Below are positions 11,600 through 14,884 of a stretch of 64,000 nt of DNA, one piece after another (within the stretch, counting starts at the first letter, position 1; every line of letters starts with the position of its first letter). The stretch spans positions 7,587-71,586 of the forward strand of contig CACZCH010000011.1 of assembly GCA_902779645.1 (NCBI GenBank), read 5' to 3'. Under the pieces are notes generated by a model that saw only the letters and a list, made by a program, of their open reading frames with translations, searched no databases and was not told where the DNA came from. Source of the DNA: an uncultured bacterium. GTDB taxonomy: Bacteria > Cyanobacteriota > Vampirovibrionia > Gastranaerophilales > Gastranaerophilaceae. The translations under genes were made by a program, and so were the position numbers.

Positions 11600-12374
11600 T
11601 AATTTCTCTAAATAGTGTTAAAAAGGATTTATCAACAAGAGGTTTTATTTTAATTTTAGATTTTCTTAACAGATTATAATGCAAATCTTCTATTATATTA
11701 ATATAATATTTGGTCGCAACAATAACATAATCAGGATTAATCTCTCTTATCTTTTCCGGTGGAATTGTTTTATATCCCAAAAATTCAGCTTCAGCATCCT
11801 TTGAAGAAAATCTCTTATCCGAAATGCCAATAACATTCAATTCTGAAATATCAAAATATTTTTTTATTAACTCTAAAAAAACACCTGCACCATAAAAAAT
11901 CACTCTTTTATTTTTAACTTTTTTTAGCAATTTAGGAAGTGTTTTATCAAACTTATTCTTCATTAGAAAATTATAATTTGATATCTCATCTTTTATGGTT
12001 TCTTTAAATAGAATTATAATTCTATCTTTGCATATATTAAAATCATATTCCAACAACTCAGTAATAGGTTTTGTATGTTCATTTGTTACAAGAACTACAT
12101 CAAAATCCATACTTGGAATTTGGTCGGTTTTAATTGCTTTATATCCGCAAAAAGTATCTGTATTCGTTTTATTAAATTTTTTATCTGCAATACATACAAC
12201 ATTCAATCTTTCTTTTATATTGTAATTTTGATTTAAAAGATTAAAGCTTGCTCCTGCACCATAAATCAGAACCTTTTTCCCTTCTAAACTTTTTATTATT
12301 TCTTCTGTTTCTTGCTTAAATTCCTCTGTTGAGGTTTTCATCTCAAAATATTTACTGACCATTATATTCTCCAA
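11592..12374 (-). CDS. Hypothetical protein made of two tandem Rossmann-like (YGAG) domains
   Basis: Two repeats K.V.(I/F)YGAG...I(A/S)DK.F...F.GYK.I. Confidence 0.75.
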   Translation of the reverse strand: MENIMVSKYFEMKTSTEEFKQETEEIIKSLEGKKVLIYGAGASFNLLNQNYNIKERLNVVCIADKKFNKTNTDTFCGYKAIKTDQIPSMDFDVVLVTNEHTKPITELLEYDFNICKDRIIILFKETIKDEISNYNFLMKNKFDKTLPKLLKKVKNKRVIFYGAGVFLELIKKYFDISELNVIGISDKRFSSKDAEAEFLGYKTIPPEKIREINPDYVIVATKYYINIIEDLHYNLLRKSKIKIKPLVDKSFLTLFREINV

Positions 12375-13656
12375 TCACATTTAGTATATCATCAATTATG
12401 CGTTTTGCGCTATAATTATTTTTTAAATTAAGATTTTGTAATAATTGAATACGCTGTTCTTTTTTATAATCGTTTTTATTTAATAAAACAGTATTAAGAT
12501 GTTCATAAAGTTCATCAATATTTCGTGCAATATAACTTTCTTTATCAACTGCTTGAACGACACTATTTCCTTCAAATTGTTCAGATACAAGATGTATCAT
12601 AGGATTTTCCGATACAAAATACTCCATTATAAAAGATCCGCAATCAGTTATAAGGGCATTGGATTCTTTAAATAACCCGAGATAATCTCCGCCTTCGCTT
12701 ATAAAACCGATTTTTCTCCACTCGTCGTAGTAGTTATCCAGCTCTTCTTTGGACATATAATTTGAACTTATAATAAAATTATAAAAAAGCGGATGAGGTC
12801 TAAATACCCAGTTTAACTCAGGATGTGCCTTTGCAAATTCAAGGATTTTGTACCCGCTCCAATCAAAAGTTCCAAATCTGATATTATTTCCGCATACAGT
12901 CCAGTGCGGAGCATAAATTGTATATTTTTTTTCTTTTTCTTCCGAGTGTAAGTAATAATAATCCAAAATCGGGTGTCCGACAGCTTCCAAGTTCTTCCCT
13001 TTATTTGGCATTTTAGAGCCGTAGGATTGTTTTATGTCTTCGCTTAAAACGTAATGTTTAAACAAATATTTATGAAATCTCAAATCGTACTCAAACCATT
13101 TTTCCGCAATAACAATAAAGTATGGGATGTAGAATGTCAGAGCAAATTTTGAACAAACAACCGGTCCTTGAGTTTTATAAACATACCAAGGGTGAGAATA
13201 AATTATAATATCAGGCTTAAATTGCTCAAGAGGAATATACAAGTCCTCCCCTCGCCCTGCGGGAGAGGGGCAGGGGTGAGGGGACAATTCATACCCATAC
13301 TCAACATTCATCCCCTTTTTCTTAAAAAATTCATAACATCTTTTTACATCTTCTTTTGTTTGATAATTAGCATTACCTTCAACTGCGCAGTTTTTTGTAA
13401 CAACAATTTTAGGATTAAATCTTTCATCTTGAACCATCAAATCATACACGGATTGGGATTTCCATTTTGCTTCGTCATAAACATAAAAAATAACATTCAA
13501 CGGAAGTTTATGCTGAAGTTTTTTCAGCACTTTTTTTTGATTTTTTTCTATATATTTAAGGTTTTGTTTAACTTTTAAATTATAGAAAAAATCTTTTCCG
13601 AACCCTAAAATTTGGCCAATTTTTTCGTAATCTATGTACAATAACAACTCCCTCAC
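12352..13656 (-). CDS. CDP-glycerol:poly(glycerophosphate) glycerophosphotransferase-like protein
   Basis: VGHPILD, YAPHWT, WVFRPHP, ALITDCGSF motifs; start codon uncertain (GTG lies inside a repeat). Confidence 0.78.
   Translation of the reverse strand: MRELLLYIDYEKIGQILGFGKDFFYNLKVKQNLKYIEKNQKKVLKKLQHKLPLNVIFYVYDEAKWKSQSVYDLMVQDERFNPKIVVTKNCAVEGNANYQTKEDVKRCYEFFKKKGMNVEYGYELSPHPCPSPAGRGEDLYIPLEQFKPDIIIYSHPWYVYKTQGPVVCSKFALTFYIPYFIVIAEKWFEYDLRFHKYLFKHYVLSEDIKQSYGSKMPNKGKNLEAVGHPILDYYYLHSEEKEKKYTIYAPHWTVCGNNIRFGTFDWSGYKILEFAKAHPELNWVFRPHPLFYNFIISSNYMSKEELDNYYDEWRKIGFISEGGDYLGLFKESNALITDCGSFIMEYFVSENPMIHLVSEQFEGNSVVQAVDKESYIARNIDELYEHLNTVLLNKNDYKKEQRIQLLQNLNLKNNYSAKRIIDDILNVIGEYNGQ
13248..13283 (-). 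repeat. GC-rich REP-like palindromic element inserted in frame in a CDS
   Basis: CCCCTCACCCCTGCCCCTCTCCCGCAGGGCGAGGGG on the minus strand, encoding SPHPCPSPAGRG. Confidence 0.85.
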
Positions 13657-13684
13657 TCTTACCCCTCTCCCGCAGGGCGAGGGG
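13649..13684 (+). repeat. Second copy of the GC-rich REP-like element, inverted relative to the first
   Basis: TCCCTCACTCTTACCCCTCTCCCGCAGGGCGAGGGG; hairpin CCCCTC-TCCC-GCA-GGGC-GAGGGG. Confidence 0.85.
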
Positions 13685-13693
13685 CAAAAAACA

Positions 13694-14884
13694 TTACAGT
13701 TCTGATTTTTTGCTGTGTTTTTTAATCACTTTTGCCTGATATTTTTCGTCATACTGGAATTTATATCCATTTACAAAGCTCTTTACTATTGCATTTGAAA
13801 AAGTACCTCTTGCCGTCCAATAGGAAGTATGCGCAAGAGCAAACATTCTCTTGCTCCAAACACTTGAGTTATCATAAATTACACCTGTCGGATTTTCGAT
13901 TTCGAATCCTAGACGCTCCTCAATCTCTTTTGAAGTAAGGTTTCTGCTTGTCGGGAAACCTAATGGATCTTCTCTAAAGTTTACCGTAAGCATAAAAATT
14001 CCGTTTTCCATGATGTATTTAATCATCAGTTTGTTATAAAAATTCAACTCATAATTTGAGTCTGATATATCAGAATAAAATAATACAAGCGGACAAGCAA
14101 AGTTCACGACACCTTTAACTTTACCTTCCGGTGCACAAGCAAGCTCTGTCATATTGTCGATATTCAAATAATTTTTTTTGAGTTGTTCTTTGTTTTGATT
14201 TAAAATCAAATGTCCTGCACTTGATACATTTCCTATACCTGCATAATCATAAGAAAGAGCCGATATACAAGTATCTTTTCTCGGATTAGCTTTCACAAAA
14301 TCAACAACATCTTTGTCTGCATTTAATGCTTCAAACAATTTTTCCAAATTTATATAAGCCAGTTTGTTAAATAAGTATTCATATGTGACGAAAGTTCCTG
14401 CAGAATATCCGTACAAAATTACGTCATTACCATTTTCAGCTTCTTTTTTGACCGATTGATTAAGCTCATCTAAAATCGGAATCATATTATGTGGTTTCTG
14501 CACCCAAATAGCATCATGAAGATATTGAGCAATAAGGCTTCTTGCAAAATAAGCTCCGGATGAACTTATTGCCTTGGATAAATCAAGCTGGCCTTTTACG
14601 TAGTCTAAATCATTTTTACTTTTGTCGCCCCAAAAATATATTACAGGCTGCTCTTTAATATTTATCTCACTACCGAGAGCCTTATAGTAATGCTTGATAG
14701 CCAAGTTTTTTATAAACTTTTTTCTTAAAACGGGATGAAGTTTGTGTACTCCATTTTTATACCAAGTCTTCATTTTTTCGTCATTGTTATTTGAACCGTT
14801 AATGTATATAAAACTCAGCTCGTTTGACGCAAAAACAGAATTAAACCCCAATAATAATGCTAAAATTAAAACAATCTTCTTCAT
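13694..14884 (-). CDS. Exported hypothetical protein, probable alpha/beta-hydrolase fold
   Basis: Signal peptide; nucleophile elbow GYSAG; candidate D (EDPLG) and H (HTSYW). Confidence 0.65.
   Translation of the reverse strand: MKKIVLILALLLGFNSVFASNELSFIYINGSNNNDEKMKTWYKNGVHKLHPVLRKKFIKNLAIKHYYKALGSEINIKEQPVIYFWGDKSKNDLDYVKGQLDLSKAISSSGAYFARSLIAQYLHDAIWVQKPHNMIPILDELNQSVKKEAENGNDVILYGYSAGTFVTYEYLFNKLAYINLEKLFEALNADKDVVDFVKANPRKDTCISALSYDYAGIGNVSSAGHLILNQNKEQLKKNYLNIDNMTELACAPEGKVKGVVNFACPLVLFYSDISDSNYELNFYNKLMIKYIMENGIFMLTVNFREDPLGFPTSRNLTSKEIEERLGFEIENPTGVIYDNSSVWSKRMFALAHTSYWTARGTFSNAIVKSFVNGYKFQYDEKYQAKVIKKHSKKSEL

Follow-up and report, generated by a model that had tools for sequence, protein, structure and literature searches.

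To our knowledge, the BoxC/PIT/TM repeats have been without a known origin for ~30 years. The unit of 34-37 nt consists of one C-rich and two G-rich blocks and may form a hairpin, an intrastrand triplex or a G-quadruplex; hairpin energies are the ones computed in the present work. The repeat has been named in succession BoxC, PIT (potential intrastrand triplex) elements and TM_ECO, the last standing for 'triplex motif' (PMC4666352). In E. coli K-12, 23 copies of 34-37 nt were tabulated by Holder et al. 2015 (Table 1, PMC4666352), and the same repeat was redescribed by Kaplan et al. 2016 as a G-quadruplex/hairpin switch (PMC5100583). It is present in E. coli and in >260 other genomes (PMC4666352; PMC5100583). 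The E. coli copies are all intergenic, with 'none within ORFs', and their distance to genes displays no trend; promoter or terminator activity and a transposase were not found, local rearrangement was raised, and neither study saw a sign of mobility (PMC4666352; PMC5100583).

Two elements assigned here to this family are found in a 64,000-nt stretch of DNA, termed the window, from an AT-rich gut bacterium of the Gastranaerophilales (Melainabacteria). The window is C11:7587-71586 of an assembly of 40 contigs, 2.06 Mb and 33.5% GC. Very probably both elements are solo BoxC/PIT/TM_ECO copies that were inserted separately, one tolerated inside an enzyme gene, the other serving as the putative ribosome-binding site of that gene; both may be related to a gene cassette found elsewhere in the genome. 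The repeat family is thus a known one; the Melainabacteria host is new, and the in-frame residence in genes and the placement at ribosome-binding sites go beyond what the two E. coli studies describe. A search of the available literature for repeats in Melainabacteria or for coding insertions of BoxC found none.

The two copies appeared in a repeat search as inverted arms at 13248-13282 (+) and 13650-13684 (-), each 35 nt long, identical at 32/35 positions (91% complementary) and 367 nt apart. This bears out the first-pass annotation of the same DNA, which had claimed a near-identical copy in opposite orientation ~370 bp away. The first 23 nt are common to both, and the core, CCCCTCGCCCTGCGGGAGAGGGG, has exactly two occurrences in the window and 0 in 100 shuffles. 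GC content is 0.44-0.48 at both copies and 0.2-0.35 in the surroundings. The internal solo copy (13248-13282) carries its G-rich strand on the plus strand as CCCCTCGCCC-TGC-GGGAGAGGGG-CA-GGGGTGAGGG, and the enzyme mRNA bears the C-rich strand. The upstream solo copy (13650-13684, minus strand) is situated in an intercistronic spacer; its blocks 1 and 2 are perfect, and block 3 has decayed to GTAAGAGTGAGGG.

Neither copy comes near any gathering score in Rfam. The family was traced by a full-text literature search with the two G-rich blocks, which led to Holder et al. 2015 (PMC4666352). The window copy, CCCTCGCCC-TGC-GGGAGAGGG-GCA-GGGGTGAGGGG, can be set, for example, against E. coli copy no. 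10, CCCTCGCCCTTTCAGGGAGAGGGCCGGGGTGAGGGT (Table 1, PMC4666352); blocks CCCTCGCCC, GGGAGAGGG and GGGGTGAGGG and the length of 34-37 nt equal those of the 23 published E. coli copies. The block order, C-rich, short loop, G-rich, short spacer and second G-rich, is the layout of a purine-motif triplex. Judged by its blocks, the window element is a BoxC/PIT/TM_ECO three-block repeat of the form CCCTCGCCC-loop-GGGAGAGGG-spacer-GGGGTGAGGGG. The strictly intergenic location reported for E. coli, which describes that species and is not a definition of the family, does not hold here, as ~7 copies are inside ORFs.

The genome has ~26-28 full copies of 34-37 nt on 14 contigs. The first-pass annotation had proposed a genome-wide copy count and had held that an element with no other copies would speak against its reading; the count gave ~26. 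All 26 copies fit the pattern CCCTC[GT]CCC-N3-6-GGGAGAGGG-N1-5-GGG(G)TGAGGG(GG), and a reversed control pattern gave 0 matches in 242 genomes. The repeat is found in 19/41 relatives and, over the class, in 35/201 genomes and 15/97 genera, with 0 to 98 copies each. The dominant loop variant differs from genome to genome, the TGC loop being present in 12/26 copies here. The patchy distribution and the genome-specific loops fit multiplication within genomes. Copies inside long ORFs are found in other genomes of the class as well. The flanks of the 26 copies display weak YT / NAAWTT preferences; no direct target duplication, such as a MITE would have next to its terminal inverted repeats, is visible in the 26 flank pairs, and the assemblies include no same-species empty site.

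Two further observations concern the genomic surroundings of the repeat. The sequence GGGGTAAA occurs 427 times in the genome, against ~40 expected from base composition, and is within 60 nt of 6/28 TM copies, against 0.75 for random places; both elements may simply favour spacers. In the assembly of a different genome (G100), which has many contigs, about a dozen TM copies are <500 nt from contig ends, which suggests either that TM is contained in longer repeats or that the assembly was broken at TM.

The gene that hosts the internal copy (12352..13641, minus strand) encodes a protein of 429 aa with a predicted GT-B fold. It has a weak match to Pfam PF04464 (24.9 bits, cut-off 22.1), and Foldseek retrieved UDP-GlcNAc 2-epimerases, TarL 8va1 and TagF 3l7k, with probability 1.00 to TarL, TagF and GT-B epimerases. 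With a Pfam score above the cut-off and the GT-B fold of the model, the product is classed as a putative TagF/TarL-like glycerophosphotransferase (CDP-glycerol glycerophosphotransferase family), a cell-envelope enzyme. By tblastn the gene is single copy in the genome, with neither a paralogue nor a second copy of the 367-nt interior between the arms. A related protein, P0003, is a 413-aa form of the enzyme that is without the 21 residues directly before the repeat-coded peptide; the gap reflects a 63-nt deletion adjoining the repeat or else an artefact of the gene model.

The enzyme gene reads the internal copy in frame. The 36 nt at 13249..13284 (minus strand) are translated as SPHPCPSPAGRG, and the net gain relative to empty orthologues is 33 nt (11 codons). 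The first-pass annotation had described a 36-bp in-frame hairpin that adds a Pro/Gly-rich peptide; the in-frame gain stands, and the net size has to be reduced to 33 nt. It had also proposed that the peptide is an indel, to be checked by alignment of orthologues, and that an equivalent peptide in orthologues without the DNA repeat would count against this. In the alignment, 98/118 orthologues have a 6-residue DIEKDD-type loop at the site, those closest to the species from outside it and the outgroups included, and ~20 have longer inserts, so that the peptide is indeed an indel and those without the repeat have no equivalent of it. At the DNA level, a single clean 33-nt gap distinguishes the gene from those of L001 and L002, whose proteins are 88% and 73% identical, respectively.

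In a gene tree from which the insert columns had been left out, the window protein groups with its two near-identical relatives (98-99%) in one clade, which is nested among the empty proteins P0004, P0005, P0014 and P0015 (97-98% support), and over the tree the insert state undergoes at least six changes on well-supported branches. This places the internal copy, as far as comparative data can tell, as a gain within the species lineage, in DNA for a surface loop of the enzyme's N-terminal domain. The same pattern could arise from an old insertion that was repeatedly and exactly lost, or from recombination between species, and the gene tree is compatible with recurrent insertion, exact loss and between-species recombination alike. 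In ~20 orthologues the same loop contains other or decayed copies. Several of these filled orthologues, L034 for example, have recognisable copies in the same orientation and frame and in varied states of decay, and L033 has three tandem copies in the same loop. On this evidence, insertions into the loop, or losses from it, have occurred repeatedly.

The structural context was predicted with an AlphaFold2 model of the enzyme from 72 sequences (pLDDT 91.8 overall, pTM 0.90). The pLDDT falls below 50 only at residues 122-131, which are within the insert; in the N-terminal domain they are preceded by a strand (113-115) and followed by a helix (138-141). Modelling of the loop position, as had been proposed, thus gives the insert as a predicted disordered surface loop, and the 11 extra Pro/Ser/Gly-rich residues are predicted to be disordered. 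The internal copy is without a stop codon in 5/6 frames. The insert is probably tolerated because of this scarcity of stops, a gain that is a multiple of three and the disordered state of the loop.

In-frame residence is not confined to the enzyme. In-frame copies are present in at least six other genes, for MurF, LdcA, MnmE (a decayed copy), an ABC ATPase, a CMP-sugar cytidylyltransferase and a 1109-aa protein; in the five genes scanned, Pfam domains flank the insert on both sides. The MurF insert is absent from other orthologues of the same genus, and MurF of another genome (G007) has an independent copy in the same loop in opposite orientation. For LdcA (LD-carboxypeptidase), the closest orthologues, in G016 and G008, are empty, and the same linker has different or decayed copies in six other species. 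The site-1 copy of the ABC ATPase is common to G017 and absent from G008. These comparisons indicate that the same protein loops are hit repeatedly across species.

Additional features are seen at two loci. The G007 MurF copy (L014:1501-2148) has a 37-nt insert between blocks 2 and 3, which makes it a long-spacer variant or a nested insertion. At C1:34812-36355 (L179 / L193) a 37-nt TM copy is situated in the inter-domain linker of a two-domain ABC ATPase, which in relatives is one fused protein of 466-548 aa. The TM spacer contains a TAG that terminates ORF1, and the coding sequence resumes in a different frame as ORF2, for which block 3 contains a GTG. Either a frameshift accounts for this split, or the gene underwent fission and took its new start from the repeat.

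The upstream copy has a different relation to the enzyme gene. The first-pass annotation had placed a GTG start at 13656, within this copy, which would thus overlap the start of the gene. Orthologues, however, begin at the codon that corresponds to TTG 13641: their N-termini (M-YIDYEK) and start codons point to the TTG at 13639..13641 (minus strand) as the probable true start, and the matching codon is ATG, GTG or TTG in 80 named orthologue loci. The start is very probably TTG 13641 and not GTG 13656, and with this start the upstream copy falls in the spacer and not over the start. The spacer (13642..13693, minus strand) comprises 52 nt between the stop codon of the 396-aa gene (13694-13696) and the TTG, of which 35 nt are the repeat. 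The GGAGAGG sequence formerly proposed as SD-like is replaced by GAGGGAG (13648..13654, minus strand), the tail of block 3, which ends 6 nt upstream of the start and is by position the likely Shine-Dalgarno sequence. The 16S rRNA gene, for the anti-SD, is not present in the assembly.

In a promoter/terminator scan, nothing resembling a terminator turned up at the repeat, nor anything like a promoter on the gene's strand of the spacer. The genes on either side of the spacer are probably co-transcribed, and the upstream copy was inserted between them as a separate event. In the computed fold, its blocks 1 and 2 form a local hairpin of -22.8 kcal/mol and the decayed block 3 is unpaired. Blocks 1 and 2 would then fold locally in the transcript, and the GAGGGAG of block 3 would serve as ribosome-binding site; given its position, the upstream copy very likely supplies that site to the enzyme gene. 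The arrangement recurs in the genome. At least six other genes have a sense-oriented G-block of the repeat 3-9 nt ahead of a credible start, namely those for isocitrate/isopropylmalate dehydrogenase, an AMIN-amidase, a response regulator, a PLP enzyme and dihydrouridine synthase, and a DUF559 gene in a cassette on C8; copies facing the opposite way at start codons number only one to three.

The genome has two strong DUF559 genes. The one on C8 (56610-56936, 112 aa, PF04480, E 1.4e-40) is enclosed in a cassette of ~430 bp (C8:56561-56990; L157:1440-1890) by inverted TGC-loop copies at 56561-56595 (+) and 56956-56990 (-), and the G-block of the left copy is 8 nt before the DUF559 ATG. The second (C18:9644-9970) forms part of the reading frame of a 469-aa PrmA-like ORF and has variant three-block repeats on its two sides. 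The variant repeat of that region (C18:9560-10060), CCCTCCCC-TTGC-GGGAGGG ... GGGGTGGGG, has an extra small hairpin in its spacer.

The association extends to other genomes. GC-rich inverted repeats are found on both sides of 11/12 DUF559 loci elsewhere, and by coordinates at least 12 strong DUF559 matches are <100 nt from strict repeat matches. Over 201 genomes, DUF559 and the repeat co-occur with counts of 22/13/15/151 (odds ratio 17, p = 3.6e-11), a ratio that rises to 58 when the window's own family is taken by itself; none of the co-occurrence statistics is corrected for phylogeny. DUF559 genes are, however, absent from the four copy-richest genomes (98, 49, 47 and 36 copies), and none was matched in the E. 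coli control; the DUF559 nuclease may be a passenger. The solo copies of the window could be non-autonomous relatives of the ~430-bp cassette, of the same subfamily as the repeats that bracket its DUF559 (Vsr-like) nuclease gene, and the ribosome-binding role of block 3 would then derive from that cassette. It can be proposed, tentatively, that BoxC/PIT/TM repeats represent the terminal repeats and gene-less offspring of minimal selfish cassettes with DUF559 as their sole gene, that solo copies act as portable translation-start modules, and that repeated hits to the same loops reflect a target preference and not only tolerance. A cassette origin of the solo copies is plausible, although on balance it is more probably wrong than right.

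Other explanations have been considered for the two copies, several of which treat them as a unit. One is that the copies act jointly in the mRNA, with a ~34-bp duplex of leader and internal copy that buries the ribosome-binding site and controls translation. The minimum-energy fold of the 521-nt 5' region does pair the copies (-147 kcal/mol against -106 for shuffles, z = -8), so that the pairing formerly suggested is thermodynamically favoured; the same result is nevertheless expected of any inverted GC-rich repeat, the local hairpin (-22.8 kcal/mol) would be the first to form during transcription, and the differences between the window and L003, the relative that has both copies, are not compensatory. 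Comparison of relatives separates the copies further. In L116, whose protein is 98% identical, the internal copy is the same to the letter, but a different gene precedes the enzyme and an intact upstream copy is missing; only the upstream copy is present in L117 and L002, and L001 has neither. As each copy is found without the other in close relatives, the pair is not considered functional, the idea that the copies act as a pair is not sustained, and joint control of translation is very unlikely. Recombination of the arms (35 bp, 91% identical, inverted) that inverts the 5' 367 nt and so silences the gene would accord with published work that ties such repeats to local rearrangement (PMC4666352; PMC5100583), but no recombinase-like family is present among the neighbouring ORFs checked, the 5' part of the gene has the same orientation in the window, L003 and L116, the three assemblies with the internal copy, and the copies were gained separately; an invertible segment is thus improbable in the extreme. 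The inward-facing geometry, with 367 nt against 360 nt, matches the TM-DUF559-TM cassette of C8, and the genome has three copy pairs within 500 nt against 0.16 expected, so that a nuclease might treat the 5' part of the enzyme gene as the cargo of a pseudo-cassette. The interior, on the other hand, is the enzyme's own N-terminus, which sets the pair apart from a TM-DUF559-TM cassette; it is single copy and is ordinary conserved coding sequence in orthologues without both copies, and the two copies differ in age, which makes this proposal highly improbable as well. Comparative sequence data instead favour the pair as a coincidence of two separate insertions, not a switch or device. The three pairs (C1:35559-36004, C8:56561-56990 and C11:20835-21270) have TM copies 360-373 nt apart and only one encloses DUF559; at L116:1380-1520 there is a synteny break at the position of the upstream TM, where an HTH gene replaces the 396-aa gene, and this break fits the rearrangement-prone behaviour reported for E. 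coli.

Two other alternatives concern the peptide and the nature of the element. The inserted peptide might have been taken over for a function, such as a flexible linker or binding site, and be kept by selection: inserts at the loop persist in many lineages while their DNA decays, and the insert is retained in all three same-species assemblies. This is decidedly unlikely, since most orthologues, those closest to the species from outside it included, function without an insert, the loop is predicted to be disordered, and the insert changes faster than the rest of the protein in the comparison with P0002, one of two same-species proteins (2/12 residues against 4/417, p = 0.01), a weak point given that the other, P0001, gives no such difference. 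The other alternative would make the element a REP/REPIN moved by resident RAYT-type Y1 transposases, or a palindromic element of the Rickettsia type; the first-pass annotation had spoken of a REP-like palindrome and of a resemblance to the Rickettsia elements. The genome has four Y1_Tnp matches, and in-frame insertion recalls the Rickettsia palindromic elements (RPEs). The RAYT genes, however, are flanked by a GTAG-tagged hairpin of their own, GGTAGAC-N4-GTCTACC, and not by the window repeat, and Y1_Tnp and the repeat do not co-occur across 201 genomes (odds ratio 1.3, p = 0.53); RPEs are ~150 bp and confined to Rickettsia. On these grounds, the RAYT hairpins, the missing co-occurrence and the mismatch in length and host, both identities were rejected and have next to no probability. 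The likeness to RPEs holds as a functional analogy, that of in-frame insertion, and fails as family membership (35 nt against ~150 bp); nor is the element a REP tied to a RAYT transposase, its blocks being those of BoxC/PIT/TM_ECO. Two intact RAYT-like Y1 transposase genes are present (C2:105932-106521, L004, and C15:34190-34779, L005), each flanked by GTAG hairpins, and GGTAGAC-N4-GTCTACC hairpins number only five in the genome.

With two separate insertions as the preferred reading, the locus has several implications. Conserved genes whose loops were ancestrally empty indicate that copies are newly inserted in DNA and can be carried as protein sequence, and copies can also occupy positions where a ribosome-binding site is needed. 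The window copies thereby add to the evidence for mobility of a BoxC-type repeat. The link to DUF559, which has no counterpart for RAYT transposases, offers a candidate for the missing mobility function. With respect to annotation, the repeat accounts for odd Pro/Gly-rich loops, over-long N-termini such as that of the GTG call, and split genes in genomes of this kind. If a cassette origin is true, the filled and empty sites of Melainabacteria, together with the two resident cassettes, represent natural test material.

Compared with known systems, the window repeat has a functional parallel in the RPEs: both are palindromic, are found in frame in unrelated housekeeping genes and encode a peptide compatible with the fold. 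The RPEs, however, are found in Rickettsia alone, measure ~100-150 bp, specify a conserved peptide of greater length and have no sequence relationship to the present element, which is 35 nt and is found in Gastranaerophilales. With the RAYT-mobilised REP / REPIN sequences it has in common that both are short GC-rich palindromes with many copies and genome-specific variants; it differs in that it does not display a GTAG or CGTC tag and in that the resident RAYT genes have another flanking hairpin. The closest likeness is to BoxC/PIT/TM_ECO of E. coli, in the three blocks, the block sequences and the 34-37 nt length, in the tens of dispersed copies with occasional inverted pairs, and in the link to local rearrangement with no transposase known. 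Unlike the E. coli repeats, which are intergenic throughout, ~7 of the 26-28 copies here are read in frame as part of conserved genes, a sense-oriented copy precedes a start codon by 3-9 nt in at least seven cases, and the host is an AT-rich Melainabacterium in which copies bracket a DUF559 gene.
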